Virus record (IMG/VR): IMGVR_UViG_3300009514_000888
Span: 1-64,000 of that record
Reading direction: 5' to 3' (one strand)
From: a virus
Length of the DNA stretch: 64,000 nucleotides
Part shown: piece after piece, positions 2,135-38,799 of the stretch
Layout of the letters: every line of letters begins with the position of its first letter
How positions within the stretch are numbered: the first letter of the stretch is position 1
The notes under the pieces: generated by a model
What the model saw: only the letters and a program-made list of their open reading frames with translations
What the model was told of the DNA's origin: nothing
The model's database searches: none
Translations under genes and position numbers: made by a program

Positions 2135-2911
2135 ATGGGCGTAGACCCAGAAGAGTCCTTCATCGCGACAGCCGTCCTTGATAGAATGCCCCATTCGCTT
2201 CGCAATGTGGACCAGGCGATGTCAAAAACTTTATCCAGGAAGAAATCCTCGCGATTATGGCGTAACATTATGGATTATTGCACCAAAGGCACGCCTATGA
2301 TTAAGGGGAAGGATGCGTGGGTGCTGATCCTACTGTTGAAGAAGACGTTATCGGTTCCTGGCGATGTAGTTGAGATCGGATGTCATAAGGGCAGGACCAC
2401 AGTTGCTTTTCAGTCGTTGTTGAACTATTTTGGAGTTTCTAAGCAGATATATGCCTATGATTCGTTTCAAGGATTGCCCCCAGAACGCCCGGATGAATCG
2501 TATGATCTTTCGTATTATGAAAAAACGGTAACGGACAAGAGTTGGACGAAAGGCTCTACGCAGGGATTGTGTCATGCGACCATAGGCGACTTTGAAAAGA
2601 ATATGCTTCGAGCGGGTGTTGAAATGCCCATCGTTCGAGAGGGGTGGTTGGAGGATACGCTCGATAGTAGCATGCCGGATAGGATTAGCTTTGCTTTTTT
2701 CGATGTTGATATGTACTCGTCCACCAAGACAGCTCTGAATCGGCTGGTTCCCAGGATGAGCATAGGGGCGATAGGGTGCATACATGATTACTCATGGCAT
2801 CCTTGGCGAGAAGGGGTTCGGAGGGCGTGCCAGGAGGAGTTAAGATATTTAGTTAGACCTATTGGAGCATATGGTGTGTTCCAAATAACGCAAGGAGCCA
2901 ATCATGGCTAA
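2135..2911 (+). CDS. TylF/MycF-family (macrocin-O-) methyltransferase
   Basis: VPGDVVEIGCHKG, YAYDSFQGLP, FAFFDVDMYSST and IHDY motifs. Confidence 0.85.
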   Translation: MGVDPEESFIATAVLDRMPHSLRNVDQAMSKTLSRKKSSRLWRNIMDYCTKGTPMIKGKDAWVLILLLKKTLSVPGDVVEIGCHKGRTTVAFQSLLNYFGVSKQIYAYDSFQGLPPERPDESYDLSYYEKTVTDKSWTKGSTQGLCHATIGDFEKNMLRAGVEMPIVREGWLEDTLDSSMPDRISFAFFDVDMYSSTKTALNRLVPRMSIGAIGCIHDYSWHPWREGVRRACQEELRYLVRPIGAYGVFQITQGANHG

Positions 2912-3684
2912 GAAACGAAAACGAGATCGCAAGATTCATCACTTGGATAGGCGTCCCGTCGAGGGTAAAGCGCAGGAGTGTCTTTGACCCATCCATATCT
3001 CATGAACTGATTCTAGAGATTCAGTTCGGTACTGGTGGCGAAGACAGCAAGCTCTTTGTCGAAGACTTGGCCGCCGCCTACCTAAAATATGCCAATCGTT
3101 TAGGGTTGTCCGCTGAGCTGCTCGACAGCTTCGACGGTCATATTGCGCTCAAGATGAGCGGGAGAGGCGTCTGGAGGGCTTTCTGCCACGAGTCAGGCAA
3201 GCATGTCGTCCAGCGTGTGCCGCCCACAGAACGCAGCGGAAGGCGGCAAACGTCTGTTGTGGCGGTATCCATTTTGCCGATCTTTGAACAGAAGGCATCC
3301 CCTTTGCCTGATGCAGATATAGAGATTATGCCGTTTAGCAGCGGCGGGCCGGGCGGACAGCATCGCAACCGCAAGAAGAAAGCGATACGGATGCGGCATA
3401 AGCCTACGGGCATTCAGTCCATTGTAGCAACCAAGGATCGTCAATACAATCTTAAAGAGGCGCGCAAGATTCTGACTGCACGGGTGAATATGAGAAAGTT
3501 AGAATCTCATCGTAAGGATTACGATGAGTCCCGTAAGCAGCAATGGGGAGGCGGGGGACGAACAGGCAAGATCAGGACGTATAACTTTATCGAGTCGAGA
3601 GTTACTGATCACCGCACAGGGCGAAAAACCAGGGCCATTGATTTGGTCATGAGAGGACAGATTGATCTGATCCTGCCTGCCTAA
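2904..3684 (+). CDS. class I peptide chain release factor (RF1-like, lacking domain 1), expressed via +1 frameshift at 2982-2988; about 259 aa
   Basis: ATG 2904 after AAGGAG gives 27 codons to TGA 2985. The +1 frame from 2986 is open to 3684 and encodes LILEIQFGTGGEDS, HVVQRVPPTERSGRRQTS (PxT), GGPGGQH (GGQ) and IRTYNF..SRVTDHR. Confidence 0.85.
2974..2988 (+). promoter_or_regulatory. RF2/prfB-type programmed +1 frameshift signal
   Basis: AGGAG-TGT-CTT-TGA-C: internal SD, 3-nt spacer, CUU-UGA-C, the same geometry as the prfB site. Confidence 0.85.
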
Positions 3685-3685
3685 A

Positions 3686-4807
3686 ATGGTTTCACAGTCA
3701 GCATATCTGATAAAACCCATACTCGATAATTCGGGTATGGGTTTTATTGCGCCTGAGCCTATACACGAATATGACCATTGCTTCAGCCGGAAATACGCGC
3801 AGGGGCAACATCGCTACTACTTCAATGCCACAGAATTCTCCTGGCCTGGTTCGGCAAGCCTGGAATGTGACTGTTTGGATCGCTTGTCAATAGATGCGTT
3901 CTGCGCGTCAACACAGAATGGGCTAAATGCGAACCATTTGCGGGCGCTCGCCTACGGCAACGCCTTGGCTTCCTTTTGGCCAGGGGCCAACGTTTGCGGT
4001 TCGCTGGTGATGAGAGATGGAAGTGTTTCGAAAGAGATTGATCGTTTTTATAAGATGCTTGGATTTCTTGGATGCAAAATGAATGTTCATAAGGACGCAG
4101 AATTTGTTCACACTAGATTAGATGGAGAATATGCTCTCGACGGAAAAAGGCTTATAGAAAATGTGATTACCGTGGATGATCAAGGCAGACGAACCAGAGC
4201 AAGAGATATTCTGTCTTTCATGCGGCATAACCGCCCCAGTCATTACATTGTCAGCATAGATCATGCCGGAGAGTTGGCACGCGTCGGGCAGACTAATGTT
4301 CATTACTTGGCCGGCGTCGATGGGGGCGATGCAATAGGTATGTTCGATTTGCTCGATACAGTTGAAGAGTCATTTGCAGGCCGAGGCGAAGATGCCAAGA
4401 AAATTGCGTGGAATTCAATTGCATATGCTATGTTTGCCGAAAGAAGGGGAGAGGTATTGTCTTTGGATGTAAAGGATTCCCAGGGTTCGTATCTATACGA
4501 CATACTAGAACGTGCTGATGGTTTATCCCGAGACATCTTAACTGGTGAAACCATAGAATTGCAGGATAAGGATGTGCAGATGTTAGGGTTTGCGGCGTAC
4601 GAATACTATTACCGTTATTTGTCCGCTCAAAAGTTTGATCCGTATCCGTTGGCTAAATACGCTTTAATGTTGGCTAGGCGCTTGGATCAGTATTGCGAAT
4701 CGGAAGAATATCATCGTCCAGCCTTTGAGTGGTCTATCATGGAAACAAAAATGGGGTTGATTAGTGCGATGATGTCCCTGGGACTATTCGTTCCCAAAGA
4801 CACATGA
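3686..4807 (+). CDS. hypothetical protein
   Basis: 373-aa ORF abutting the release factor stop. Confidence 0.7.
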   Translation: MVSQSAYLIKPILDNSGMGFIAPEPIHEYDHCFSRKYAQGQHRYYFNATEFSWPGSASLECDCLDRLSIDAFCASTQNGLNANHLRALAYGNALASFWPGANVCGSLVMRDGSVSKEIDRFYKMLGFLGCKMNVHKDAEFVHTRLDGEYALDGKRLIENVITVDDQGRRTRARDILSFMRHNRPSHYIVSIDHAGELARVGQTNVHYLAGVDGGDAIGMFDLLDTVEESFAGRGEDAKKIAWNSIAYAMFAERRGEVLSLDVKDSQGSYLYDILERADGLSRDILTGETIELQDKDVQMLGFAAYEYYYRYLSAQKFDPYPLAKYALMLARRLDQYCESEEYHRPAFEWSIMETKMGLISAMMSLGLFVPKDT

Positions 4808-4835
4808 ATAGCGTTTTTGCTAAGGGAGAAAGAAT

Positions 4836-5198
4836 ATGCCCTATGATATTGAGTATATTCGGGAGTCTGTTGGTGAGCTAAAGCGGCAAACACAGAGTTG
4901 GATGCCCATCCTTAAGGGAACAGAGAAAATCATATGCTGCGCCGAAATGGCAGGAATTGATGTCTCAGAGATACGGGGACTCCGTCATACGGCTATTGCT
5001 GACTTGCGAATCATACTTCGTAAAATTGAATTCCTCGAAAAAGATATGCTTTTTGCAGACGAATGGGATGAGGATGATTTTCATCTCTTTGGGGAACGAT
5101 TCATTGACTTCCAAGAATACGTTTGCTACGAAACGGATAGTTTCAAGAATCTTAGTGATAAAATGGATCAAATTCTCCAGCAATCGAGGGAAGAGTGA
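4836..5198 (+). CDS. hypothetical protein
   Basis: ORF with GGGAGA RBS. Confidence 0.6.
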   Translation: MPYDIEYIRESVGELKRQTQSWMPILKGTEKIICCAEMAGIDVSEIRGLRHTAIADLRIILRKIEFLEKDMLFADEWDEDDFHLFGERFIDFQEYVCYETDSFKNLSDKMDQILQQSREE

Positions 5199-5512
5199 TA
5201 TACTCCGAGGAACAGGCTCAAATTTGGGATGAGATCATCGATGCCGACCCCAAGATTCCCAAATTCTTCAAAAACTCAGAGCATGGCAGGGAATTGTGTC
5301 GAGCCTGGATATTTATGGGACAAAACCTTATTGAACGCGCCGGATATACTAGGGCAGAGGTCGCGGCTTTCGGTCGCCGGTTCTGCATGAAACACTTGGC
5401 CAGGCGATCCCCGATAGACGAGATATGGGATGCTGCCGAATCCCATGTTGAAGAATTGTGCCAAACGCCAGACGAAGAATCGAATATAAGGGGTCAACAT
5501 GAAATCTCGTAG
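5195..5512 (+). CDS. hypothetical protein
   Basis: ORF overlapping the upstream stop (GTGA). Confidence 0.55.
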   Translation: MIYSEEQAQIWDEIIDADPKIPKFFKNSEHGRELCRAWIFMGQNLIERAGYTRAEVAAFGRRFCMKHLARRSPIDEIWDAAESHVEELCQTPDEESNIRGQHEIS

Positions 5513-6029
5513 TTGGCATTTTGTGGACAAATCCGCTTGGGGCGATGGCCCTTGGCAGGATGAGCCTGACAAGAAACAGTGGGTAGACCAAGAGACTCAT
5601 CTGCCCTGTCTGATAGTGCGATCTAGGGTGACGGGATCGCTTTGCGGCTATGTGGGCGTTCCTGCTTCGCATCCGTGGTATGGCAAGTCTTATAATGACA
5701 TTCACCAGGAATATGAGGTAACGGTTCATGGCGGGTTGACCTTTGCGGGGACATGCGATGGCGAGCCTCGTGGTGTCTGTCATATCGTGGAAGATGGGGA
5801 AGATGACAATGTTTGGTGGGTTGGATTTGATTGCGCTCATGCCTGGGACTTAACCCCGTCGTCTGTAGCGATCATGCGAGCGATATATGACGCCAAGGGC
5901 GAGTTCTATCATCGCCGAATAGATGACATATACCGAGACGAAACATACGTAGCTGACTGTATTCGGTTATTGGCTGCGCAAGCGAAAGGCGCAGAGAAGG
6001 AAGAGGAAGATCGAAGCGCCATGTACTAG
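5499..6029 (+). CDS. phage hypothetical protein (CGYV..HP, HGGLTF, GFDCAH motifs)
   Basis: Motif pattern recurrent in uncharacterised phage proteins. Confidence 0.7.
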   Translation: MKSRSWHFVDKSAWGDGPWQDEPDKKQWVDQETHLPCLIVRSRVTGSLCGYVGVPASHPWYGKSYNDIHQEYEVTVHGGLTFAGTCDGEPRGVCHIVEDGEDDNVWWVGFDCAHAWDLTPSSVAIMRAIYDAKGEFYHRRIDDIYRDETYVADCIRLLAAQAKGAEKEEEDRSAMY

Positions 6030-6031
6030 GC

Positions 6032-6775
6032 ATGGCGTTTAAGCATCTTATCCTTGCGCTCGGACGGTCTGGCAGTACCACGTTGATGGAAGCGGTAAAC
6101 TGTCATCCGGATGCCTATCTTCTATCAGAGCCATTTAATAAACAGTGGGGCAAATTTTCGCATGTCAAATCTGTTTCAGGTATTGATGCCGCGATCCATA
6201 GTATGCAAGTATTCACTGGGTTTAAGCATACGATGGGAAATACCGCGTCATTTGATAGCGATGGCGTGATTTATCATCACATCTTGAATCATCATCCTCG
6301 CGTTATTTTACTGACGAGAGACAATATGTTGCGCCGGGCCGTATCCATGTCGATGTCTGCGCAAACTCAGGTATGGCATGTCAATCGGCAGCCCGATGCC
6401 AGAGAGAGGATATCTCAGTTTGAATTTCAACCTTTATGGGCGAATTATATCGAAAAGATTCTGCGAACGTCTGTTCTGTGGGTAGAGGCATGCGAAGCAT
6501 ATTTGAGGGAACATGGTATTATTTATCGCAAAATGACGTATGAAAATTTGATGGGCGAAGATGTTCTGGTGGGGTTGCGCATTAAGCGTTTTATGCGTGT
6601 TCTAAAGACCCTGGGATTGAGCAGGGATCATCCGAAATTCAATCCATCGAAGCTGGAAGTTATCTTGTCTCCAAAAAATAAGTTGAATTCCAGGGAAGTA
6701 TATAGGAGAGTTCCTAATATAGACGAAATAGAAGAGGTGTTTGGTAGCCCCGAAAATGGCTACTTGTTCCGATAA
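6032..6775 (+). CDS. sulfotransferase-family protein (Stf0/NodH-like)
   Basis: N-terminal PAPS-binding GRSGSTTL, LLSEPF and ILLTRDN..RAVS motifs. Confidence 0.75.
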   Translation: MAFKHLILALGRSGSTTLMEAVNCHPDAYLLSEPFNKQWGKFSHVKSVSGIDAAIHSMQVFTGFKHTMGNTASFDSDGVIYHHILNHHPRVILLTRDNMLRRAVSMSMSAQTQVWHVNRQPDARERISQFEFQPLWANYIEKILRTSVLWVEACEAYLREHGIIYRKMTYENLMGEDVLVGLRIKRFMRVLKTLGLSRDHPKFNPSKLEVILSPKNKLNSREVYRRVPNIDEIEEVFGSPENGYLFR

Positions 6776-6790
6776 TTTGGAAGGACTGCC

Positions 6791-7063
6791 ATGACTCCCG
6801 AAATGCAGCTGAATTGGGTGGGCGAGGTTTACAAGCAATACATGGCAGATGATACTGCAACTTACCACGAAATAGAAGTCAGGCTAAAGGGAGGCCAAGA
6901 CGCGGATCAAGAAGAATACCACGGGCAATCGTATGAGTTATGGGAGGCTGGTCCATTCTGGTGGGCAAGAACGCCAGATGAATTCGAGGAGCTTGCCTGG
7001 ACCCGAGAAGAGGCGGTCCGGCTGATTGAGAAACACATCGACCAAGCATGTCTCGTCAACTAG
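6791..7063 (+). CDS. hypothetical protein
   Basis: ORF with AAGGA RBS. Confidence 0.55.
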   Translation: MTPEMQLNWVGEVYKQYMADDTATYHEIEVRLKGGQDADQEEYHGQSYELWEAGPFWWARTPDEFEELAWTREEAVRLIEKHIDQACLVN

Positions 7064-8016
7064 TCAAGATAGGAGCGGCTCGAATACCCCAGGGGCCAAG
7101 AACTGAAGAAGACGCCAAGGAAAATGTGCGCTTTGTCATAAGAACACTTTTTGCTGATCAGAAATACGAATTCCAATTATCTGATGATCCTGATTATGTC
7201 ATCTATTTTGCGTCATTAGATGCCTGCCCGCCTGGGAAACATCCTTATGATCCGCAAAATGACCATATCAAAATCTTTGTCTCTTGGGAGCCTCCTACTC
7301 CAGATGATCTAAATCAATACGACTGGCTTTTTACCTGGGTGTATGACGATTTATTGGGCAACCCGCGACATTTGCGGGTTCCATATCACTATTACTTTGG
7401 ATCGCAGTATAGATTGTCGCAACCCAGGGATTGGGATCGGGTTTTTTCGCAAAAGACCAAGTTCTGTAACTTCATCTATTCTCGAGATGTGGAAGTCCGC
7501 AATGAATTTATGCGGAGATTGAACCGATACAAGAGGGTTGACTCGCCTGGCAGGTGTTGCCGCAACATGGTCATGCCGCTGGCCCACGCCGGCAAATCTT
7601 ACAAGCCGATAGACTTCTTGCGATCTTATAAGTTCACGATCTCATTTGAGAACTCGTCAATCGTGGGCTATACGACAGAGAAGATATGCGAATCCATGTA
7701 TGCAGACTCGATACCGATTTATTGGGGGAACCCTTGGATCGGCAGGGACTTTAACGCCGACAGTTTTGTCCATGTCTACGACAAGTCTGCTTTGCAGCAC
7801 CCGAGATTTGGCATGGATTATCAGGAGCCGGATTATTCGATTTCTCCGTCAGAGACTCTGTCTGAATCAATGGACGTTGTCATAGAGAGGATAATTCAAC
7901 TGGATAATGACGATGCACTGTATGCGGGTATGCTGCGACAGCCCTGGCGGGCGGAATACGGCATCCCAGATATGCAAGATCGGCTATCGAAGCGATGCCG
8001 AGAGATATTTGGATAG
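7048..8016 (+). CDS. glycosyltransferase family 10 (alpha-1,3-fucosyltransferase-like)
   Basis: KTKFCNFIYS, YKFTISFENS, GYTTEKI and PIYWG motifs. Confidence 0.85.
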   Translation: MSRQLVKIGAARIPQGPRTEEDAKENVRFVIRTLFADQKYEFQLSDDPDYVIYFASLDACPPGKHPYDPQNDHIKIFVSWEPPTPDDLNQYDWLFTWVYDDLLGNPRHLRVPYHYYFGSQYRLSQPRDWDRVFSQKTKFCNFIYSRDVEVRNEFMRRLNRYKRVDSPGRCCRNMVMPLAHAGKSYKPIDFLRSYKFTISFENSSIVGYTTEKICESMYADSIPIYWGNPWIGRDFNADSFVHVYDKSALQHPRFGMDYQEPDYSISPSETLSESMDVVIERIIQLDNDDALYAGMLRQPWRAEYGIPDMQDRLSKRCREIFG

Positions 8017-8223
8017 GAGACGGTATGTGGGGACTTCAGGCGTACGATGAAGACAACGACCGATGGGTAACAATCTTTGAGAACGCGGACGATTACGTCG
8101 TTCTAGATGAATATGAGAAAATGAGAAGTTCACCAGAAGCTCGCACAGGACTTCGGGTTCTGGATAGCGGAAGTCGAACATCTCGCCTATGCCATGCATG
8201 AATGCTCAAAGGAGAATTGAGAT

Positions 8224-8934
8224 ATGGCTAAAGATATCATGGAAATGTTGGACGATCAATCATTGGATCGGCTGACAGGGGAAATCATGGATGCAATTCG
8301 AGAACAACCCGAAGGCTCTCGTTGGGATTCCGAATTCGGCATTTCCAAGGGAAAAATGCAAAGCTCAGGGACGAATACGTGGTTCATGTTTGATGTGGAA
8401 GATCAATCGTATTTGCGAGAATTCATTGCGGCCCTTTATGGACGAGAGATGGAGGAAGACGAGAATCAGAAGATCAGCGAATTTGTGAATAGACTCTCTT
8501 ATAATATAATAGATGATATCGTCATGCTTCGAGAACAAATTCGCCAGTCGGTGATGCCGGATTCTGATGTCAAAATTTTCCCTCTAGACAAAATTGTCAT
8601 TGATGTTATTGATATTGTTGATTTCTCATCGGTGCCAGAAGACGGCAAGTATTTGACCAGATGGCGCAAGATTCCTGGGTTCTCAGTGGACATGCCTCGG
8701 GTCATGGAATTTGTGGCAGATGTACAGGAAACCGACCACGATTTGACAGTTCAAGACATAGTGGAGAGAGAGCAGCTTAAGGGGAATCAGCTGTTTGATG
8801 GCGTGATTTCTGCGGATCGCGGAACTAAGTATCTGTATGATGTTACGCTTTCGTTCTTTGTAGACTACTCTCCGGCGTCTCCTGAGGAAATTCTGGCGGC
8901 GATAGAAGGAGAAAAGAACAAAAAGAACGAATAA
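8224..8934 (+). CDS. hypothetical protein
   Basis: Acidic 236-aa ORF with AAAGGAG RBS. Confidence 0.7.
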   Translation: MAKDIMEMLDDQSLDRLTGEIMDAIREQPEGSRWDSEFGISKGKMQSSGTNTWFMFDVEDQSYLREFIAALYGREMEEDENQKISEFVNRLSYNIIDDIVMLREQIRQSVMPDSDVKIFPLDKIVIDVIDIVDFSSVPEDGKYLTRWRKIPGFSVDMPRVMEFVADVQETDHDLTVQDIVEREQLKGNQLFDGVISADRGTKYLYDVTLSFFVDYSPASPEEILAAIEGEKNKKNE

Positions 8935-9229
8935 TGCAATGGCTTACTCCTTCTAACCAACAGGCAATCCATTGAGACTGATTAGGGTCACTGCGCATGA
9001 ATATATGGCGATGGGACAGGATGGATTGCTTTGGTTTCGAATCAAGATGCCGCATTTGGACGAACAGTCTGGCAAATTGCTGGCAGGGCAAACATTCGCT
9101 AATCTTCAAGAATTATTGATGAAGGAAAAAGGTGGCATCCACGAAGAAGGAGGAAAAGGAAAAGAATGGATAGCATCAGAAGATGTAATTATTCAATAAG
9201 CAATTGCCCTTGACCCAAGGAGATAGATA

Positions 9230-9580
9230 ATGGCAATTACAGTATCACCAGTTCAACAGCCTATCATTACTCTGAATAATGCGCCATTGGACTTGGATGT
9301 CGTGTCATCAGGATTAAGCGTGACGAAGGCAGGCGTGACTACCGCTAATGCTCCTGCGGTACTCCGTATTACGGCAGGCGCAGGCGCAACCATCCGCTAT
9401 ACGCTGAATGGCCGCAACCCCAACCTGGGCTCCACCGTTTACGATGGTCCCATTACGCTTCGCGAAAACACTAATGGTTTTTCGTCCTCCCGAACCATTG
9501 TCAAAGCGAAGGCATATGTTAATGGCGACTCCTCCGTAATCACTAGAGCAGAAATCAAGATTCATGCGGTGAATACCTGA
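9230..9580 (+). CDS. chitobiase/beta-hexosaminidase C-terminal (Fn3-associated) domain protein, possibly virion-associated
   Basis: ATIRYTLNG..P...STVYDGPITL...TIVKAKAY motif. Confidence 0.7.
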   Translation: MAITVSPVQQPIITLNNAPLDLDVVSSGLSVTKAGVTTANAPAVLRITAGAGATIRYTLNGRNPNLGSTVYDGPITLRENTNGFSSSRTIVKAKAYVNGDSSVITRAEIKIHAVNT

Positions 9581-9803
9581 TCCCGACAACCCGCTATAAT
9601 GGCGGGATGAACGTTTTCGAGAATTTTCGCAGCTCGATTGGCATTATCCCAGTCGGGCTGTGTCTATTTGGGGACCACTTCTAGCCAAACTCCGGCACAT
9701 TTGAGGGTCTTGTTATTCATAAATGGATCGAACCTCGGTAACAACGCCGCGAGTTCATGTAGCAGGAATCGAACCCTTGTCACCTTTTTGAAAGGAATAA
9801 ATC

Positions 9804-10688: not shown

Positions 10689-10730
10689 TCTGGTCTGTTT
10701 GAATTCCCACCACAAAAAAGGAACCAAAAG

Positions 10731-11417: not shown

Positions 11418-11468
11418 CGACCGTCGTTCAGGGGTGTGTTTCAGCCTATTTAACGAAGGTCAAAAAAA

Positions 11469-12134: not shown

Positions 12135-12172
12135 CCCTGCTGTGTCACCACTGCATTATAAAGGAGCCAATC

Positions 12173-28738: not shown

Positions 28739-28744
28739 GGCTTA

Positions 28745-30777: not shown

Positions 30778-30798
30778 ACAAAGCCCTTACTCTACAGA

Positions 30799-30838
30799 AG
30801 CCCTCGGATGGCATTGGTCGTCCGAGGGCTTTTTTTTT
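30799..30838 (+). terminator. intrinsic terminator
   Basis: AGCCCTCGGA...TCCGAGGGCT followed by a T run. Confidence 0.85.
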
Positions 30839-30898
30839 AAGATAAGTGCTTGAGATTGTTGCATAATTGGACTGGTTCGTTACGGAAGGATACCGCCC

Positions 30899-31408
30899 AT
30901 GAAAAAGCCTACTGATGTATTGACTACGGGGCAGATTGCCAATCTTTGTCGTTGCGCCCCCAGGACTGTTGCCAAGTGGATTGACGACGGCGCACTCAAG
31001 GGTTTCCGTCTTCCAGGCTCCAAGGACCGCCGCGTAGTCCTGGTGCAATTGTTTTGCTTTATGCGCGAGCGCGGCATGCCGCTGGAATGGCTCGCGTCTA
31101 TGACAGATATTCAGGAAATCAAGAGATATTGCGACATTCACATGATTGAGGATACTGTTGAGATGGAGCCCGGACAGGCTCCGAAGGCCGTGTTGGATGT
31201 AGTTGGGGAAATTCTCATCTCGCTAAGAGAGGTCTTTGGGAAGGTGGTTACGATTAGCAAAAGGCGAGGGACTAATGCTCCGATATTAACTATAGCTGTT
31301 GAGGGAACGACCCAAACAATCACGTTGCAGCGAGAGCATGTATCGGCGATAATACCGATTCTTACTTGTTTTATGAATACTGGGCAATTGACAGAGTCCA
31401 TGGCCTAA
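30899..31408 (+). CDS. excisionase/MerR-type HTH DNA-binding protein
   Basis: LTTGQIANLC.CAPRTVAKWID.G.LKGFRLPGS.DRRV. Confidence 0.8.
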   Translation: MKKPTDVLTTGQIANLCRCAPRTVAKWIDDGALKGFRLPGSKDRRVVLVQLFCFMRERGMPLEWLASMTDIQEIKRYCDIHMIEDTVEMEPGQAPKAVLDVVGEILISLREVFGKVVTISKRRGTNAPILTIAVEGTTQTITLQREHVSAIIPILTCFMNTGQLTESMA

Positions 31409-31420
31409 AGCGAGGACAAG

Positions 31421-32029
31421 ATGGCGGACAATGATATTTATATTGGGAAGATTTGTGCTTCGTCGGACAATACCTTAGCTGTCGTAACGTCCAAAAAGCG
31501 AATACCGATCAAGGGGATGAGATGGTTTGGATTCACACTTGACGGATATCCTTGGAAAAGCCGCAATCCCAGGGTGGTCGCAGATAGCCTTAACGAATAC
31601 ATTCATCAAAAGATTGACGAGAGAGCCTTCTCTTTGCGAGATATGTATACGGACAAACTTGCTGTTGAAAAAATCAGGATACAGCGTGAACGCGATCAGC
31701 AGTTGGTAGATGCGAAAAAAGAGTGGGATAAAGAAAATGAGAAATGCATTGTTGAGGCAGCTGGCGAGATGGCGAAGATCAAACAAGAGATCGCTAATCT
31801 ACAAGCAGAGTATGCAGGCAGCGACGGCGCATGCAGCCGCTTGGTAGAACGGCAGATCAACGAAGAGCGGAAAGCTTACTTGGGCATTTTGCGCAGTTTG
31901 CTTAAGAACGCAAACAAATCTACTACAACGGCCATTGAGAGAGCGGTCGTACGCATTGACGAAAGAGCGAAAGAGCGTAAACAGAAAAGATTGGAGTCTC
32001 TAAATGCACCAGATACAATGGGTGTATGA
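31421..32029 (+). CDS. hypothetical coiled-coil protein
   Basis: 202-aa ORF. Confidence 0.6.
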   Translation: MADNDIYIGKICASSDNTLAVVTSKKRIPIKGMRWFGFTLDGYPWKSRNPRVVADSLNEYIHQKIDERAFSLRDMYTDKLAVEKIRIQRERDQQLVDAKKEWDKENEKCIVEAAGEMAKIKQEIANLQAEYAGSDGACSRLVERQINEERKAYLGILRSLLKNANKSTTTAIERAVVRIDERAKERKQKRLESLNAPDTMGV

Positions 32030-32056
32030 TGGCTATCTTTGGGTATTTAGCGGGAC

Positions 32057-32094
32057 GAAGGCAGGAAACCCCACCCTTGCGGTAGGATAGTTCA
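32057..32094 (+). mobile_element. solo IS200/IS605 right-end-like remnant
   Basis: GAAGGCAGGAAACCCCACCCTTGCGGTAGGATAGTTCA closely resembles the end at 64-96. Confidence 0.5.
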
Positions 32095-32111
32095 ACATAT
32101 GGGGAGAGTCG

Positions 32112-32486
32112 ATGCGATACAAGTATGCGAATACGCTAAAAGCAGACTTGTATTTCTATAAGGCTCATGTCGTAAGCGTGTATGACGGGGATACGCTGAC
32201 GGCTCGAATCGATCTTGGTTTTGATACCAGCGTTCAGCATAAGCTTCGACTATCTGGCATTGATACGCCCGAGATACGGGGCAGGGATCGAGTGCAGGGT
32301 CTAAAGGTCCGAGACATAGTTCGGGAACTGGTCTTGGGCAAAGATATATTTGTGGAAACAGTTCAGGACAAACAAGGCAAATATGGAAGATATCTGGCGG
32401 TTGTTTGGTATGGCAATGGCAATGGCAATAGGTATTACTGTCTAAATGAGTTCCTTCTGGAAGAAAATCTGGCAAGGCCCTACTGA
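32112..32486 (+). CDS. thermonuclease (SNase) family protein
   Basis: VYDGDT, RLSGIDTPE and KYGRYLA motifs. Confidence 0.9.
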   Translation: MRYKYANTLKADLYFYKAHVVSVYDGDTLTARIDLGFDTSVQHKLRLSGIDTPEIRGRDRVQGLKVRDIVRELVLGKDIFVETVQDKQGKYGRYLAVVWYGNGNGNRYYCLNEFLLEENLARPY

Positions 32487-32929
32487 TCGCCTGGTTTGTC
32501 GCAAGATCGAATGTATTGTATGGTGCCTTTTGATGACGGCCGGCTTTGCTATTTTTGGATGGCTTTGCTTCGAGTTAATCAAAACTCTGGTTCAAGCCAT
32601 GTGTCATAAACTGCCGATATGATAATGTTGCTCATCGAGCGGAGAAGCCAGTGACTACCATCAAGCAAGATTTCAATGTGGTTCCGCGACAGGACGTGGA
32701 GCGCCTAGCCAAAGTGATAGGCGCTAAATCTGCTGTTGCGCGGGCGCTGAAAGATGCTGATAGCCATAATGGTGATGTCCGCTTTTGGGTGGGGCGTCAT
32801 AAGCGCCAATATTCAATTCTGGTAGAGAAAGTCCTCTCAACAGACGAAGATTGTTGAAATTTTCGCTTTCTTCAAACTCCGGCAACATTCTAGAGCGAGT
32901 ATTCTCCCATAAGGACAGAATCGGAAGGC

Positions 32930-34531
32930 GTGAATATGACCCAGACAACCGCACTCGACCAGCCGCATGCCCTTGCGTTTTACCACGAAGGCAAGGTCCG
33001 CGTTCATCCTGACGCATCCCAGGATGTCAAGAGCGCGGTTCTTACCTTTATTGACACTGTGCTGACGGCCAGCGGACAGGCGACGTATTACAACACCAAG
33101 AAAGAGCAGTATCGCGCGCTCTACGAGGTTCATGATGCGATTTTTCGCGTCAATCGCGGACTGTATGGCGCGATGCTGTGTCTGCCTGGCATCATGGACA
33201 AGAGCCGTCAAATTGGTTTTACCAAGCTCCTGGAAGATAACAGTGAGGGCAGGGAAGCATCGTTCTTAACCCCAGAACAGGAAAATTGGGTTATTGCCTA
33301 TCTGTCCAGAAATATTAGACCCAGCGCGCTGTTCCGGCAGTTCGTGGAAATTCGCAATAAGAGGGTGAATAACAGCCGCGTGCGCAAGTTCATTTTTGGC
33401 GCGATCCTGCCGAGTAATTCGCTGCCGCTTTGGTCGGTCAAGTATCGATCCAAGGTTCGCGCTGCGCTAGAACATGCTTGGAGCCGGCAAATGGCTTCTG
33501 CGATTCGTTGTATTCTGAGCAAACCTGCCCAGTCGAGAACAGATAAGGAAAGGTCCATCCTTGATAAGAACATTGATCGCTGGGTACGGCGCGGCAATAG
33601 CGAGCTGACCCCCGACGAGGTTTATCAGTGTATTTGCTTTGTTTTGGGCGGGAAGATGGGTAGCAAGTATACCGTCAAACTGTTGATGCAGCGGCTTGAT
33701 GCCCGAGAGAGCCTGGACAAGGGCAAGGACTTACCGCCGGAAGTCCTGGAAGGCATTCGAAGTCGCTATCACAAGGATGCTGCTAAGGGCGCGGTCTTGG
33801 CGGTCACTAAGGATACGATGACCAATACCCAGAAGCGCCGCGTACAGCGCTCGGCCAAGGAAGCGAATGTTGATGTTAAAATGGACCCGCTCAAGCAGGA
33901 CATTATTCCGCTGTATGTTTACGCGCTTGAAATGGGGATGACTCGCGAAATCTTCCAGGCCCTCGACACGAAGGCTCGCAAAATCGCGCAGACAATCCCT
34001 GTTCGATATAGGCGCGTCGGCATTGTGGTGGATAACTCCGAGTCGATGTTCGGCACGGATCAGGCGAAGCGCAAGCCGTTGGCTATCGCCCTGGCTATGC
34101 GAGACATCCTTGCGGCGTCCGCGACAGAATATGCCTTCGCCATCCCATCGCAGGGACAGTTCGATGACTTCGGCATGACAACGTCGCGCGGCGACACGAG
34201 TCTTGCCGAGCCTCTGATTCGAGTAATCGAGGAAGGGGTTGATGCGGTCTACCTGATTACTGATGGATACGAGAACAGTCCGGCAGGCAGGACCGGCGAA
34301 GTTATTGAACGTTTGAGGGAAATCGGCATTGAGGTTCCTATCTTCCAGGTGTCGCCTGTTGTGTCCGTCGAGGCGGCAGGTATTCGTGCGCTTTCGGATC
34401 GTGTCGCTCCGATGCCGGTTGCGAACCCAGCAGGCATCGGCTTGTCGATGATTCGAGCAACGATTACGAGCGATGTCGAGACGGGCATCGAAGCGCTTTT
34501 GGAAACCACGCGACCGCTACTGGAGGGTTAA
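32930..34531 (+). CDS. Ro60/TROVE-like protein (helical N-terminal region plus C-terminal vWA)
   Basis: 533 aa; vWA MIDAS-like IVVDNSESM, T(S)LAEP and YLITDGYEN at Ro60-like positions; basic helical N-terminal two thirds; a Y-RNA-like array lies downstream. Confidence 0.55.
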   Translation: MNMTQTTALDQPHALAFYHEGKVRVHPDASQDVKSAVLTFIDTVLTASGQATYYNTKKEQYRALYEVHDAIFRVNRGLYGAMLCLPGIMDKSRQIGFTKLLEDNSEGREASFLTPEQENWVIAYLSRNIRPSALFRQFVEIRNKRVNNSRVRKFIFGAILPSNSLPLWSVKYRSKVRAALEHAWSRQMASAIRCILSKPAQSRTDKERSILDKNIDRWVRRGNSELTPDEVYQCICFVLGGKMGSKYTVKLLMQRLDARESLDKGKDLPPEVLEGIRSRYHKDAAKGAVLAVTKDTMTNTQKRRVQRSAKEANVDVKMDPLKQDIIPLYVYALEMGMTREIFQALDTKARKIAQTIPVRYRRVGIVVDNSESMFGTDQAKRKPLAIALAMRDILAASATEYAFAIPSQGQFDDFGMTTSRGDTSLAEPLIRVIEEGVDAVYLITDGYENSPAGRTGEVIERLREIGIEVPIFQVSPVVSVEAAGIRALSDRVAPMPVANPAGIGLSMIRATITSDVETGIEALLETTRPLLEG

Positions 34532-34535
34532 GGTT

Positions 34536-35567
34536 ATGGCTATGGCGAATATCAGCGTAGGCGAACTTTTGCACGGCTGTGTGCCTGGCCGGATTCAGTC
34601 TGTAGGCTACATGCAGGTCATCCCTCTTATCTCTGGTATTGAGGATGAGCGTTTCGTGTCTCCGAGACGGGCGAAGGTTTCGACCACGACATACGGCACA
34701 CTTGTTTTCGACAACACCGAAAACAAGGAGGTTATTGTCCCGGCTCAGGCGGCTTATATTGTTAAGCAGGCAGCGCAGGACCATGCGATGACGACGGTTG
34801 GGCTGGTTCCCAAGAAGAAGACGATATCGTTCAATACGGCAGCATGTATCCAGCAGACTCAGGGTGGAACTATTTACTCTGACGAGCATGAGATGATTAT
34901 CTTGCCGGTCGAATTGCGCAATGATGCCCACCAAGTCCGCAAGAAGCTGGGCTACGAAAAACTGTGGCCTGCCATTAACGCTATGAATGAGAGGTATGGC
35001 GTTAGCCGCGGATATGGCGCGCAGGGGCATTTGGAATACTTCATGGATGCGTTCAAGACTCAACTGGATTGCTTCGTCGCCGAGTTTGAGCCTGTTCCTA
35101 AACAGGTCGGCGCGATTGTGTTGGTTGGCGGCAGGGTCGTTGGCATTGAACGCACCCCGAACGAGGAATATTGGCGAGACATCTGGCGCACCTTGATCAG
35201 GGAGTGCTATGGGTCGCTGGCGATTCTTGAACAGCGAAAACATGCCACGAAGGCTCCTCCAGTCCCCAAGACCCGAGAGGCTTTGCCCAAGGCAACCGAT
35301 CTGTCGGACCTCAAGACGAAACTCCGGCAGACCCAGGACCGAGAGTATTCTAATGTGAAAACCATCGTGGAGAACGTTGCGGCACTGAAGCTTGATCGGT
35401 CAACGGACGCCACCAGCGGCTCGTTTGTGGTCGATGCGGTAGAGGGCGACTCTTTCGTAGGCCAGGTGGTTGTAGACGGCGAGAAGATTGTGTACGCTTC
35501 TCTCGTCGCTCGCGGATCGCAGGCCAAGAATGAGGATTGGTTCCTGGGTAAACGGTTTGCGATGTAA
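34536..35567 (+). CDS. ARPP-1/DUF6569-like protein
   Basis: MQVIPL, AQDHA and ACIQQTQGG pattern; start is ATG 34536 or the next ATG. Confidence 0.5.
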   Translation: MAMANISVGELLHGCVPGRIQSVGYMQVIPLISGIEDERFVSPRRAKVSTTTYGTLVFDNTENKEVIVPAQAAYIVKQAAQDHAMTTVGLVPKKKTISFNTAACIQQTQGGTIYSDEHEMIILPVELRNDAHQVRKKLGYEKLWPAINAMNERYGVSRGYGAQGHLEYFMDAFKTQLDCFVAEFEPVPKQVGAIVLVGGRVVGIERTPNEEYWRDIWRTLIRECYGSLAILEQRKHATKAPPVPKTREALPKATDLSDLKTKLRQTQDREYSNVKTIVENVAALKLDRSTDATSGSFVVDAVEGDSFVGQVVVDGEKIVYASLVARGSQAKNEDWFLGKRFAM

Positions 35568-35582
35568 AATTGCCCCCGGTAG

Positions 35583-35619
35583 CTCCTCCTGGCGGCTTCG
35601 GTCGCTAGGGGGAGTTTTT
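35583..35619 (+). terminator. intrinsic terminator
   Basis: CTCCTCCTGGCG-GCTTCGGT-CGCTAGGGGGAG followed by a T run. Confidence 0.75.
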
Positions 35620-35667
35620 CTTGAGGCATAAATTGAAGAAAATGCAGAAAATTGACGCCAGGATGCA

Positions 35668-35695
35668 TTGACATTAAAGGTTCGGACGTTACTAT
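35668..35695 (+). promoter_or_regulatory. sigma70-like promoter upstream of the ncRNA array
   Basis: TTGACA-16 nt-TACTAT, ending about 15 nt before ncRNA unit 1. Confidence 0.65.
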
Positions 35696-35709
35696 GACGA
35701 ATAAGAAAG

Positions 35710-35773
35710 CTGGGGACTTGAACGTCAATACCGCGATCTTCGGATAGTTGGCATGACCTTTAACCTACCCCAG
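35710..35773 (+). ncRNA. Y-RNA-like unit 1 (small insert)
   Basis: CTGGGG/CCCCAG terminal stem; GGACTTGAACGTCAATACCG ... TTTAACCTACC. Confidence 0.6.
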
Positions 35774-35845
35774 ATACTATTTTGTCGCAAGTGCGATGTA
35801 GATGAACGCATGACAAGTGAATAATGGTGGTTTTGGGATGCCCAA

Positions 35846-35948
35846 CTACTAACAGAGGGTGGGGTCAGGACTTTCGCGTCAATTCCGTGATTAGACAATT
35901 TCACACCCTTTGACCCGCCCCCTACCTGATCCTATCCCCTGTTAGTAG
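35846..35948 (+). ncRNA. Y-RNA-like unit 2 (hairpin insert)
   Basis: CTACTAACAG/CTGTTAGTAG stem; GGACTTTCGCGTCAATTCCG ... TTTGACCCGCCCCCTACC. Confidence 0.65.
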
Positions 35949-35953
35949 AACAT

Positions 35954-36105
35954 AAACGGGAACTCTTGCGTCAATACCGAGTAGGCATTATAAACCCCAG
36001 GATACGGGTTCGAATCCCGTTCGGCGCTTTGCGTAGTTTAGTACGCGCCGATAGCTCAATTGGCAGAGCAGGAATCTCAACGTTGACCCAAACCTTATCC
36101 CGTTT
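35954..36105 (+). ncRNA. Y-RNA-like unit 3, YrlA-like (permuted tRNA-like insert)
   Basis: AAACGGGA/TCCCGTTT stem; conserved core; order is T arm, loop-closed acceptor stem (TCGGCGC/GCGCCGA), D arm. Confidence 0.75.
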
Positions 36106-36115
36106 TTTAATACTG

Positions 36116-36268
36116 ACCGCCGGAAGCGAATAGATAGGACTCGCGCGTTAATACCGTGACATAGCTCAATGGTAGAGCAACACCCCTAAAGGTGCGATTG
36201 AAGGTTCAAACCCTTCTGTCTCAACAGAACTTAACCCGCAACCTACCTATCTATTTCCTTCCGGCGGT
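36116..36268 (+). ncRNA. Y-RNA-like unit 4 (complete tRNA-like insert, 6-nt CCUAAA loop)
   Basis: ACCGCCGGAAG/CTTCCGGCGGT and ATAGATAGG/CCTATCTAT stems; conserved core; insert has GCTC/GAGC D arm, CACC/GGTG arm and GAAGG-TTCAAAC-CCTTC T arm. Confidence 0.7.
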
Positions 36269-36310
36269 TTTTTAATGCGCAGAAAAATCTATTAATTAGT
36301 TACATAGTGT

Positions 36311-36440
36311 ACCGTGGGAAGCACGGAAACAAACGCTCGTGGAGACTGCTTAAGGTTCATGCTCGTTTTACGAGCAGGGGTACTCCAACGACAAGATTCT
36401 CCGGCGAAAATGCCGACTGCATCATATGATGTAGGCAACC
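36311..36440 (+). ncRNA. orphan TnpB omega-RNA-like structured RNA
   Basis: CCGTG-GGAAG-CACGG hairpin, A-rich linker, ACGCTCGTGGAG...CTCCAACGA long stem, possible GGGAA/TTCTC pseudoknot. Confidence 0.45.
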
Positions 36441-36442
36441 AT

Positions 36443-36515
36443 GGCCGCGTAGCTCAGCGGAAGAGCAAAGCGTCTCTAAAACGCTAGGTCCAGGGTTCGA
36501 GTCCCTGCGCGGCTT
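36443..36515 (+). tRNA. amber suppressor tRNA (anticodon CTA)
   Basis: GGCCGCG/CGCGGCT acceptor, GCTC/GAGC D stem, AGCGT-CTCTAAA-ACGCT anticodon arm (CTA at 36476-36478), CAGGG-TTCGAGT-CCCTG T arm. Confidence 0.85.
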
Positions 36516-36516
36516 T

Positions 36517-36801
36517 ATGAATGTACGAGATTATCTTAAAGACGAGATTGTCAAGTACGTTGAGTCGGCTCAGGGCTGTAAGGCCACTGAAATTGCTCCT
36601 GCGATAATTGATGCCATCACCCCCACCCAAAGGGAGGATGGGACAATGGCTGCATTTCTAGAACTTCCATTTATAATTGAAGAGCTGATTGATGAAGGAC
36701 GGATTGTATCTGTCTGTTACTCATTGCCGAGTATGCCATACCGAGAAAAACAGTTTTTGTTACCTGCTGGCACATCAGTATTAGCAAGGAGCTTGCTATG
36801 A
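36517..36801 (+). CDS. hypothetical protein
   Basis: ORF starting right after the tRNA. Confidence 0.55.
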   Translation: MNVRDYLKDEIVKYVESAQGCKATEIAPAIIDAITPTQREDGTMAAFLELPFIIEELIDEGRIVSVCYSLPSMPYREKQFLLPAGTSVLARSLL

Positions 36802-37163
36802 AGAGTGTGGTAGCATTGATTATTCTGATCATTCCGTCTTTCGCATTTGCCGGTCAAAAGATTCATATTGGCATTTATTCTACCAGCGGCTTTCATCGCG
36901 CTCATTACCAGCCAGCTTATTATGGAAGCCGACCGTTCAGCTATACATCTTTCATCCGCATGCCTCCACCGCAGAAAACGCCGCCATTGGCTTACGATAA
37001 TAACAAGGCGGCATATGGGTATGTACAATCTCGTATCATTGCGGCGAAGCAAAGAGAAGTGGAGAAGCAGGAAAAGGCGAAGTGGCAGGATGACCAGCAG
37101 AGACGAAATGTAATTTGGGAACAGCAAAGGAATCAATTCGCTCGAAGTTGGATTTTTGATTAG
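36798..37163 (+). CDS. exported hypothetical protein
   Basis: Signal peptide ending AFA. Confidence 0.55.
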   Translation: MKSVVALIILIIPSFAFAGQKIHIGIYSTSGFHRAHYQPAYYGSRPFSYTSFIRMPPPQKTPPLAYDNNKAAYGYVQSRIIAAKQREVEKQEKAKWQDDQQRRNVIWEQQRNQFARSWIFD

Positions 37164-37175
37164 AAAGGAATTGAA

Positions 37176-37778
37176 ATGTCATTGATTCTGAAAGCGGCGC
37201 GACTGGCACGGAAAGCTCATGGGGGACAGACCCGCAAACATAATGGGCTACCATATGATGCTCATGTTTCTCGCGTTGCGGGTCGGGTAGCCACTCATGA
37301 CATCGCCTGCGAAGAAAGTGTAGCGGCGGCCTTTCTTCATGACGTGAAAGAGGACACGTCATATACATTCGATGATATCCTTACTGAATTACACGATGAG
37401 CGGGCAGAAGATGTGCTCGATCTCGTCCGTGAATTGACCAATCCGTCCAAGGGTTCTCGCTTATCCAGGACGGAACGTAAGTGCATGGATAGAGATCATC
37501 TATCTAATGTCAGCTATGAGGCGAAGGTTATAAAACTCATTGACCGCTGCGATAACCTAATGGAAATACTGTCTAACTGGACGAGGCTGACTATAGACGA
37601 AAAAAACTTTGTTCAGCTCTATGTCGAAGAATCTATATTATTGGCGAAAGTGATAGGACATGCGGATGAACGTTTGGAAGAGGAACTGATGATGTATGCC
37701 CATCAGTTGCGAAAGTTGGTTCGCCAAGAAGTCTCGCATCGGCGAACTTCTCCGGACTCTATCGAAACTGCATCATAG
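37176..37778 (+). CDS. HD-domain hydrolase, RelA/SpoT-hydrolase (Mesh1/SAH)-like
   Basis: AHGGQTRK..GLPY..H, AAFLHDVKEDT and IKLIDRCDN motifs. Confidence 0.85.
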   Translation: MSLILKAARLARKAHGGQTRKHNGLPYDAHVSRVAGRVATHDIACEESVAAAFLHDVKEDTSYTFDDILTELHDERAEDVLDLVRELTNPSKGSRLSRTERKCMDRDHLSNVSYEAKVIKLIDRCDNLMEILSNWTRLTIDEKNFVQLYVEESILLAKVIGHADERLEEELMMYAHQLRKLVRQEVSHRRTSPDSIETAS

Positions 37779-37794
37779 GTAGATAGGTAGATAG

Positions 37795-38013
37795 GTGATA
37801 ACGATGTTTCAACCAAACAACATTGAGACGTTCATGGGGGGAACTTTTGGGCTGCCTAAGCATGGGATCAAGACAGTGGGTGACTTGCGTATACTGCTTC
37901 GATCCTGGGCGCAAGAGGTAGATGATTGGGGCGACGACGATACCCCGATCAGCGAAGTAGCGATTGTCAAAGACAGAGTCAGCGTGACTCTTGCGGCAGG
38001 TATTGTTCAGTGA
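37795..38013 (+). CDS. hypothetical protein
   Basis: Small ORF. Confidence 0.45.
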   Translation: MITMFQPNNIETFMGGTFGLPKHGIKTVGDLRILLRSWAQEVDDWGDDDTPISEVAIVKDRVSVTLAAGIVQ

Positions 38014-38039
38014 GAACCCTCAATATAAGGAGACCAACT

Positions 38040-38402
38040 ATGGGATTCTCGTAGGTTGACAATTCGGTTTCGTATCTTTACGTTATCACACGTAGGGACT
38101 TGCCATTTCCTGTCTGCGCCGTTCAGGCGTGTCATGCCGCAATCGAAGCGGCCAGGTTCATTCCCCCATAGGTAGAGCATCCTCATCTCGTTTTGTGCGC
38201 CGTCAGAGATGAGGAGCGACTTGAACGCGCAGCTGAGAAGCTGGAGCGTAAGGGTATCCGTCTGCGCCGATGGCGAGAGCCGGATATCGATCAGTTAACC
38301 GCAATTGCGACAGAGCCTATTTCAGGCGATGCGCGTCGTTACTTCAAAGACTTCCAACTTCTTAAAGGAGACCACGATGGCTACGCTCACACAGTATCGT
38401 AA
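38040..38402 (+). CDS. Pth2-like peptidyl-tRNA hydrolase with two in-frame TAG codons (38052-38054, 38169-38171)
   Basis: AAGGAG RBS then MGFS*VDNSVSYLYVITRRDLPFPVCAVQACHAAIEAARFIPP*VEHPHLVLCAV...REPDIDQLTAIATEPI; the Pth2-family motifs lie on both sides of the second amber. Confidence 0.75.
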
Positions 38403-38799
38403 TGTTTACAAGACCCGCTTCGGCTACGTTTCGTGTAGCTACAGGATGTATCAGAAGCTCAGAAGGCTTAACTACCTTTGCCTTCTGACTCGCCAACAGA
38501 ATGCGAGATGGGAGCGGTGGAACCGCAAAGACCCCCAGAACCGAGTCATCCGTCAATGGATCAGGAACAGCCAGGGCCAGAAGGTCGGTTCGGTTGTTTC
38601 TGGTCCACAGCCCGAGCCTAAGAGATACCGTGTCCTCGAATCTCATCTGGAGAGCATTGAGTTCGCTTATCGATTGGCCAAGTATCCGATGCCGCAGGCG
38701 ACGTTGGCGATGGAGGCGGCTCGCTTGATATCTGTCGAAGACAGCAACAGAGACTTCGACCGGCTCTTGGAAACAGCTGAGCAGGAGATTATATCCTGA
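38377..38799 (+). CDS. hypothetical protein overlapping the Pth2-like 3' end
   Basis: AAGGAG RBS, ATG 38377. Confidence 0.7.
   Translation: MATLTQYRNVYKTRFGYVSCSYRMYQKLRRLNYLCLLTRQQNARWERWNRKDPQNRVIRQWIRNSQGQKVGSVVSGPQPEPKRYRVLESHLESIEFAYRLAKYPMPQATLAMEAARLISVEDSNRDFDRLLETAEQEIIS

Follow-up and report, generated by a model that had tools for sequence, protein, structure and literature searches.

The first 64 kb of the 186,298-bp IMG/VR virus contig IMGVR_UViG_3300009514_000888 (positions 1 to 64,000, hereafter the window) contain a gene for a Pth2-like peptidyl-tRNA hydrolase whose reading frame is interrupted by two TAG codons, a tRNA gene with the anticodon CUA and a gene for a release factor (RF). 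An initial annotation had described these three elements, which were indeed present at the positions claimed, and had joined them in one stop-codon circuit. Our results argue for a two-part cassette, in which a phage suppressor tRNA would permit the translation of a Pth2-like client gated by one or more early stop codons, and we assign this reading a probability of about 0.75. The link between the tRNA and Pth2 was strongly supported by sequence comparisons. The RF is a separate, independently distributed module, not a required or co-inherited part of the cassette. A literature search for a suppressor-gated Pth2 found no paper, and the suppressor-tRNA/Pth2 cassette is apparently undescribed so far. 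Given that CheckV estimated a completeness of only 39% for the 186,298-bp contig, the phage to which the window belongs probably has a very large genome.

A proposed pair of gated Pth2-like gene and suppressor tRNA

The Pth2-like open reading frame (ORF) lies on the plus strand at positions 38040–38402, comprises 120 codons when both TAGs are read and ends at a TAA (38400–38402). Its first gate (38027–38054, plus strand) consists of the ribosome-binding site (RBS) AAGGAG (38027–38032), the codons ATG GGA TTC TCG for M-G-F-S and, as codon 5, a TAG (38052–38054) that is followed by a G; the ending of this leader is kept in the closest clade. The second gate is the in-frame TAG at codon 44 (38169–38171, plus strand), which is also followed by a G. 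L002/L083 and LR756501, a phage of 735 kb, also have a second TAG in the same loop of the protein. The two in-frame TAGs agree with the initial annotation, according to which the hydrolase requires UAG read-through twice.

With both TAGs read, the protein matched PF01981 at residues 13–97, a region that spans the second TAG, with 26.7 bits against a cut-off of 23. A profile built from 19 relatives matched Pth2 chains in the PDB at E values of 3e-7 and 2e-6. The AlphaFold2 (AF2) model had a pLDDT of 90 and a pTM of 0.81, and the top 11 Foldseek matches of this model were all Pth2, with TM-scores of 0.62–0.72. In the model, the first TAG falls in a low-confidence N-terminal tail, and the second is in a loop between the helix of residues 23–40 and the strand of residues 49–55. 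Moreover, V28, Q29, H32, A33, E80, and T87, which form the motifs VQ..HA(A) and E..T, were unchanged in 19 Pth2-like sequences, and these Q..HA and E..T motifs align with the Q..HA and D..T of solved Pth2 structures. A Lys that is conserved in canonical Pth2 is presumably Arg in the phage proteins. The Pth2-like protein is a predicted Pth2-fold enzyme with putative catalytic motifs that appear intact. Similar to the archaeal and eukaryotic Pth2 (PF01981; PDB 2zv3, 3erj, 1wn2, and 1q7s), the phage proteins possess the fold and the Q..HA(A) and D/E...T positions. Different from them, however, they form a phage-specific clade whose identities to the former are 13–25%, and their activity is predicted only.

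The tRNA gene with the anticodon CUA (36443–36515, plus strand) was identified by ARAGORN and matched the Rfam tRNA model with 58.6 bits. It folds into a canonical cloverleaf whose 7-nt anticodon loop reads CUCUAAA, as expected of an amber suppressor, so that the genome does supply a CUA tRNA as initially described. ARAGORN gives the label "Pyl" to any tRNA with this anticodon. In a pairwise comparison of 131 tRNAs, the tRNA-CUA of the window was nearer to other phage tRNA-CUA than to any canonical isoacceptor. Its predicted role as a UAG decoder receives indirect support from the relatives, in which the stop codon of the client covaries with the anticodon. Two different tRNA-CUA genes, either in tandem or separated by a few hundred bases, were observed in G016 (L079:3394-3541) and G017 (L078:7012-7779) as well as at L036:1424-1575 and L114:8418-8571. 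The D-arms of the two tRNAs were clearly unlike in G016 and G017, and such paired genes may insert different amino acids at UAG.

Pth2-like homologs were drawn from viral contigs, RF-carrying contigs, GenBank phages, and species genomes and metagenomes. The resulting 52 loci formed 44 clusters at 70% identity, of which 35 were gated: behind an RBS and its ATG come 1–10 (usually 1–6) sense codons, an in-frame stop codon and then the conserved body. The position of the gate stop was kept, beyond chance, among relatives with identities of 30–50%. Of the 35 gated clusters, 30 had a suppressor tRNA with the matching anticodon in the fetched DNA or the same genome, mostly no more than 3 kb away and often no more than 500 nt. 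Not a single mismatch between stop codon and anticodon was found among the gated clusters. Most of these clusters pair TAG with CUA. At L001/L082, the leader ATG AAG TGA is accompanied by a tRNA-UCA 260 nt upstream, and at L146 the leader reads ATG AGT ACC TGA and a tRNA-UCA closely precedes the match, at a distance of 163 nt. In Stenotrophomonas phage CM1 and at L147, a TAG gate is combined with the ochre tRNA-UUA, and ochre suppressors read UAG too. These departures from TAG/CUA, together with the quadruplet lineage described below, are the strongest evidence for a link between the tRNA and Pth2. The linkage of the CUA tRNA with Pth2 read-through, as originally proposed, was supported by a stop type that covaries with the neighboring anticodon in every informative relative. 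The locus L147 also contains an odd tRNA at 3870–3947 to which no anticodon could be assigned.

The sequence around the gate stop was conserved as well. The base after the stop was a purine at 41 of the 41 tabulated first gates, at L125 and at all three second TAGs, compared with 21 of the 42 ordinary TAG terminators of the contig. Classical work in Escherichia coli established that a 3′ purine favors tRNA suppression, and the purine after the gate stop fits a site selected for read-through. In addition, the residues before the stop are kept as G-F-T/S: x-G-F-T leaders are numerous in metagenomes, and the M-S-G-F-T leader of the quadruplet lineage described below belongs to the same pattern. 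This conservation indicates that selection acts on the leader and that translation runs on from it into the body. Within the closest clade (38040–38054 of the window; L125, L129-L148), Phe almost always stands two residues before the gate stop, and the leader variants include G-F-T, G-F-S, K-F-T, E-F-T, and P-F-R, among others. The retained Phe suggests that the nascent peptide, or else the choice of E- and P-site codons, is selected so as to tune read-through. At the other end of the gene, the terminator of the Pth2-like gene was TAG at L058:1834, L060:1828, and L125:4331. At L058 and L060, about 30 codons past this terminator encode similar peptides (GKS..N...EGP.V...PG), suggestive of an extension made by read-through.

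One lineage, represented by L003/L084 and found with an identical locus in a second metagenome (L004/L085), and thus in two independent metagenomes, requires a +1 shift at its gate. Behind its leader ATG TCC GGG TTT ACG comes TGA-A, and the Pth2 body, which has no start codon of its own, lies in the +1 frame. In the region L003:2865-2970, a tRNA with a perfect cloverleaf is located just upstream of the RBS and the leader. Its anticodon loop, ACUUCAAA, has 8 nt, and the UUCA in the center of this loop is exactly complementary to the UGAA at the gate. We regard this tRNA as a candidate for natural quadruplet decoding, with a target dedicated to it. Similar to it, the frameshift suppressors of the laboratory (sufD, SufB2, and engineered qtRNAs; PMC9094753) have 8-nt anticodon loops. 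Different from them, the pair of L003/L084 is a natural phage tRNA with its target and would read a quadruplet that contains a stop codon. A second odd tRNA at L003:2187-2257 has UCA in a 6-nt loop.

The gated pair was also identified in cultured phages. Acinetobacter phage ME3 has ATG ACT TAG with a tRNA-CUA ~420 nt upstream, and Cronobacter phage GAP32 has ATG GCA CAA TAG with a Sup-tRNA 3.1 kb downstream. The GAP32 relatives CBB, BF, pEa_SNUABM, fHe-Yen9-04, and XbC2 gave near-identical Pth2 matches, their loci being known from these matches alone. In Salmonella phage Arash, ATG CTG TAG is accompanied by a tRNA-CUA 1.3 kb downstream, and the gene is annotated as a truncated coding sequence for a peptidyl-tRNA hydrolase. 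In the Xanthomonas jumbo phages XacN1 (L106; AP018399.1, about 243735-244595) and Xoo-sp13 (L107) and the Stenotrophomonas jumbo phage CM1 (L111), ATG AAG (AAG) TAG precedes the annotated start by 4–5 codons and is likely the true start; in XacN1, the ORF concerned is ORF364, which holds the Pth2 domain. In all three phages the Pth2 domain forms the C-terminal third of a protein of ~280 amino acid residues. No target was found by the authors of the XacN1 genome for its two tRNA-CUA, for which they looked only past amber terminators (PMC5852040); the Pth2 ORF is a possible target of this "orphan" tRNA-CUA. Suppressor tRNAs have also been reported for phiKp24 (PMC8386662) and Atu_ph07 (PMC6102473), for which the question of the target was left open.

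Outside of viral sequences, the phage-specific Pth2 clade had one match among 185,579 species genomes, and this match (L125) was on a phage-like contig, CAVYVK010000002.1, of 499,508 bp, which is binned in a metagenome-assembled genome of Planctomycetaceae. Its gate is MKFT-TAG, with a tRNA-CUA ~600 nt downstream. The contig probably belongs to a huge phage related to that of the window, and its bin is possibly a hint to the host.

A frameshifted RF1-like release factor

The RF gene begins with a leader on the plus strand at 2904–2987, which starts with ATG, has 27 sense codons ending in TGT CTT, stops at TGA (2985–2987) and is conserved in relatives. Its end forms a prfB-type +1 shift site (2974–2988, plus strand), recognized from its sequence and from the relatives, in which a Shine-Dalgarno-like AGGAG (2974–2978) is followed by TGT, CTT, TGA, and C. 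The RF body continues in the +1 frame on the same strand for 232 residues to a TAA (2986–3684; TAA at 3682–3684), and frame 0 soon meets further stop codons after the TGA. As AGGAG TGT CTT TGA C is the frameshift signal of prfB, the "UGA bypass" of the initial annotation is best described as a +1 frameshift: a TGA does interrupt the gene, but the mechanism is not read-through.

The RF body matched the Pfam domains PCRF and RF-1. With NCBIfam models it scored 206 bits for RF1 and 129 bits for RF2, matching profile positions 99–335 of 347 only, and its best matches in a profile search of the PDB were all RF1 (147 bits), those to RF2 reaching at most 98 bits. It also contains the motifs of an RF1, namely GTGGE at the tip of helix 5, QRVPPTE with its tripeptide of the PxT type, and GGQ. 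However, the four-domain architecture of RF1 is not present: domain 1 is missing, with an unrelated basic 27-mer as leader. All of the 18 phage RF relatives belong to this RF1-like family without domain 1. PPT replaces PxT in all 14 relatives in which the motif was located, as QRVPPTE or QRIPPTE. A leader followed by TGT/xGx CTT T-stop was present in 15 of the 18, and the stop codon at the shift site among these 18 viral loci was TGA in 12, TAG in two and TAA in one. Two +1 shifts are needed at L019 (about 2870-3000), where TGG CTT TGA C occurs twice, and at L123 (LR756511.1, 413467-414947), where TGT CTT TAA C precedes CGT CTT TGA C. In addition, two RF homologs are interrupted in the body frame, L024 by a TAG after 45 codons and L124 (LR756501.1, 358071-359527) by a TGA after 44 codons, which may be explained by a further recoding event or by a code that differs in these phages.

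Similar to prfB, which encodes RF2 and is autoregulated, the phage RF gene places CTT TGA C behind ~25 leader codons, with AGGAG three bases upstream. Different from prfB, it encodes an RF1-type factor without domain 1, its relatives can have TAG or TAA at the shift site, and two loci have tandem shifts. The stop codon at the shift site is UGA here, which is not read by an RF1-type factor, and it varies among the relatives; the UGA would therefore sense the RF2 of the host and not the encoded factor itself. A survey of 2025 reported neither programmed frameshifting for prfA nor TAG at prfB sites (PMC12421855). The phage RF1-like factors constitute a separate frameshift-controlled family, though frameshifting of prfA is unreported.

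Proposed mechanism and competing explanations

In the proposed cassette, ribosomes would start at the strong RBS and ATG, translate M-G-F-S and meet a stop codon. Only the charged suppressor tRNA of the phage itself would carry them past codons 5 and 44, and without the tRNA-CUA the product would be a tetrapeptide only. The second TAG, in a surface loop, would repeat the test, so that output would scale roughly with the square of the suppression efficiency, i.e., of charged suppressor relative to RF1 activity. Pth2 synthesis would then serve as a readout of charged suppressor tRNA weighed against RF1-type termination at UAG, and an RF1-like gene, where present, would lower UAG read-through. 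With the stop codon right behind the start, almost nothing would be wasted and no truncated protein would be made. The purpose might be to couple the capacity for peptidyl-tRNA recycling to the period or level of nonsense suppression, or of slow termination, in infection.

The contig itself uses the standard code. The ORF density of the 186 kb was 0.92 with code 11, 0.93 with TAG as sense, 0.92 with TGA as sense and 0.91 with TAA as sense, by which genome-wide recoding of any of the three stop codons in this contig was ruled out. TAG terminates 42 of the 195 predicted genes (22%), and back-up stops were not enriched behind these terminators. TAG-recoded phages have many in-frame TAGs and rarely use TAG as a terminator, and the contig does not conform to this pattern. 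Scans of the 186 kb for additional TAG-dependent genes, defined either by coding potential on both sides of a stop or by a stop that a start precedes by at most 8 codons, revealed no excess of TAG over the TAA and TGA controls. The three best further candidates for TAG read-through were inspected and rejected as not gene-like. In the 186 kb available, no gene other than the Pth2-like one is thus a convincing client of the tRNA-CUA. At the loci of relatives, the gain from reading TAG as sense was equaled by the TGA control, so that there was no TAG-specific gain from local recoding either. These results support the initial description of the system as selective gating rather than recoding.

The circuit first suggested for this genome is one in which the RF1-like factor, the tRNA-CUA and Pth2 are a single co-evolved switch, with the level of RF, set by its UGA frameshift, and that of the suppressor jointly deciding Pth2 synthesis. 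All three elements do coincide in the window, G015, G016, G017, G026, LR756511, and LR756501. The RF keeps the decoding elements of RF1, so that competition at UAG is to be expected, and the four viral-contig relatives with all three elements and a shift site use TGA or TAA at that site, never TAG. However, the co-occurrence check, once run, separated the RF from the cassette in both directions. None of the nine contigs with Pth2 from the first scan, of which one is rated 100% complete and two are rated 71–72% complete, contained the RF, and it was not found by tblastn in the cultured phages with the gated pair, complete genomes among them; the 499.5-kb contig of L125 gave only a weak partial RF match of 26.5 bits at residues 110–160. 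Conversely, G013, G021, and G022 (96–100% complete) have the RF with neither suppressor tRNA nor Pth2, and G021 gave no tRNA match at all. Moreover, none of the 18 RF loci has a suppressor tRNA within 3 kb of the RF gene. The distance to the tRNA-CUA is 33 kb in the window, the genes are 30–130 kb apart wherever both occur, and co-occurrence is confined to very large genomes, which have many translation genes. The claim that the RF belongs to the switch was accordingly not supported, and we regard a three-part circuit as improbable. It is possible that an RF1-type factor modulates the gate where both occur by competing with the tRNA-CUA at UAG. Loss of function can be dismissed with far greater assurance. 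Two nonsense codons in a gene of 120 codons can mark a dead gene, and they might be inactivating mutations or assembly errors next to a tRNA-CUA that is there by coincidence. However, the stop position is kept in 35 clusters, from independent metagenomes as well as cultured phages, the stop matches the adjacent anticodon, and the gene has neither frameshifts nor other signs of decay and retains its catalytic motifs; these comparative data effectively refute a pseudogene, the likelihood of which we consider to be next to nil.

Pth2 might also be only one of many genes with internal TAGs, the others lying in the 61% of the genome that is unseen, where TAG would be a sense codon similar to its use in recoded Lak or crAss-like phages. 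The available sequence amounts to 39% of the genome, and code switching by phage suppressor tRNAs is documented (10.1101/2021.08.26.457843). The lack of any gain from TAG as sense in 186 kb, the 22% of genes that end in TAG, the relatives without a TAG-specific gain and the identical gate in cultured phages with the standard code all argue against it, and we consider a set of many clients very improbable. Somewhat more plausible, though still unlikely, is a homeostat, in which the Pth2-like enzyme would hydrolyze aminoacyl- or peptidyl-suppressor tRNA, so that more suppression would yield more enzyme and hence less suppression, similar to the autoregulation of RF2. Such a design resembles the logic of prfB, the genes of the phage itself end in TAG so that suppression must stay low, and the linkage between gene and tRNA is tight even where the gate is absent, as at L098, L099, and L104 with a tRNA-CUA 0.5–0.65 kb downstream. 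The sequence, however, gives no sign of such a substrate specificity, canonical Pth2 acts on peptidyl-tRNAs generally, and several ungated homologs (L102 and L103) are placed within ordinary tRNA arrays that include no suppressor.

Several observations weigh against the two-part cassette as we propose it. No suppressor was seen in five gated clusters, for which the contigs were short or 3–6 kb of flanking sequence was examined. Nine of the 44 clusters were ungated, four of them still with a tRNA-CUA within 4 kb, so that members of the Pth2-like family can do without the gate. Since TAG ends 22% of the genes of the contig without extra back-up stops, strong suppression would be costly, and read-through may thus be weak. 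In addition, 61% of the genome is outside the contig according to CheckV, and we infer read-through itself, the substrate of the enzyme and the biological purpose, including the coupling to rescue.

The cassette resembles three known systems. Recoded phages possess code-change modules of suppressor tRNA, release factor and aminoacyl-tRNA synthetase, which were proposed to be timers of late and lysis genes (Borges et al., 10.1101/2021.08.26.457843). In these modules, as in the cassette, a phage suppressor tRNA would make in-frame stop codons readable and gene expression would wait for the tRNA. Different from them, the phage of the window uses the standard code, has essentially one client that encodes an enzyme of translation recycling and not a structural or lysis protein, and carries the stop codon directly behind the start codon. 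Moreover, RF2 was found with TAG-recoded and RF1 with TGA-recoded phages, and here an RF1-type factor occurs alongside a TAG suppressor; the text of Borges et al. mentions neither Pth nor frameshifting (10.1101/2021.08.26.457843). The early stop codon at which termination efficiency would decide whether the protein is made is a logic shared with prfB, but the gate of Pth2 would use a tRNA, not slippage. Finally, synthetic feed-forward gates combine an early amber codon with an expressed suppressor tRNA into an AND-type gate that removes leak (PMC7969014), as would be the case here; different from those, the phage gate is natural, conserved and coupled to one enzyme family.

If the two-part reading is correct, the suppressor tRNAs of standard-code jumbo phages, which have been reported repeatedly without a target, gain a concrete and conserved client gene, one that is truncated or called hypothetical in current annotations. 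Stop-codon gating of genes would then not be confined to recoded phages. The pair of tRNA and gated gene recurs in dozens of phages, among them cultured ones, and phage-host pairs such as Cronobacter phage GAP32 and its relatives, Acinetobacter phage ME3, Salmonella phage Arash, and Xanthomonas phage XacN1 are fit for immediate testing. The quadruplet lineage offers a natural tRNA with a defined target, which is of interest for genetic-code expansion. More tentatively, the "orphan" suppressor tRNAs of standard-code jumbo and huge phages could be chiefly regulatory RNAs, which together with a gated Pth2 would form a portable sensor or homeostat of termination efficiency, whose stop codon and anticodon co-evolved through amber, opal, ochre, and quadruplet UGAA/UUCA forms. 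We consider this broader proposal rather doubtful at present; if it is true, UGAA/UUCA would be the first natural tRNA-client pair to use four-base decoding in a virus.

Genomic surroundings of the cassette

Nearly every gene of the window is on the plus strand. A promoter-like site, TTGACA-16-TACTAT (35668–35695, plus strand), which was found by consensus scan only, would open a transcription unit downstream of a strong terminator-like hairpin at 35581–35616. A second strong terminator-like hairpin (38804–38835, plus strand), likewise from a scan, would close it. The unit so delimited is predicted to contain a Y-RNA-like array, the tRNA-CUA, a gene for an HD-domain protein similar to small alarmone hydrolases (37176–37778), the Pth2-like gene and small ORFs. 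The tRNA-CUA and Pth2 are thus placed in one predicted transcription unit.

Within 35696–36272, an array of tRNA-like fragments lies behind a Ro60-like gene (32930–34531). It includes a "tRNA-???" (36155–36225), whose anticodon loop has 6 nt and whose acceptor stem is weak. Together with the neighboring fragments, this tRNA looks like the tRNA-like modules of Y-RNA/YrlA-type RNAs and not like a decoding tRNA. The HD/SpoT-like hydrolase gene ends at a TAG within the repeat TAGGTAGATAGGTAGATAGGTGA (37776–37800 of the window). This repeat contains a second in-frame TAG four codons on, and the next stop codon other than TAG is 16 codons downstream.

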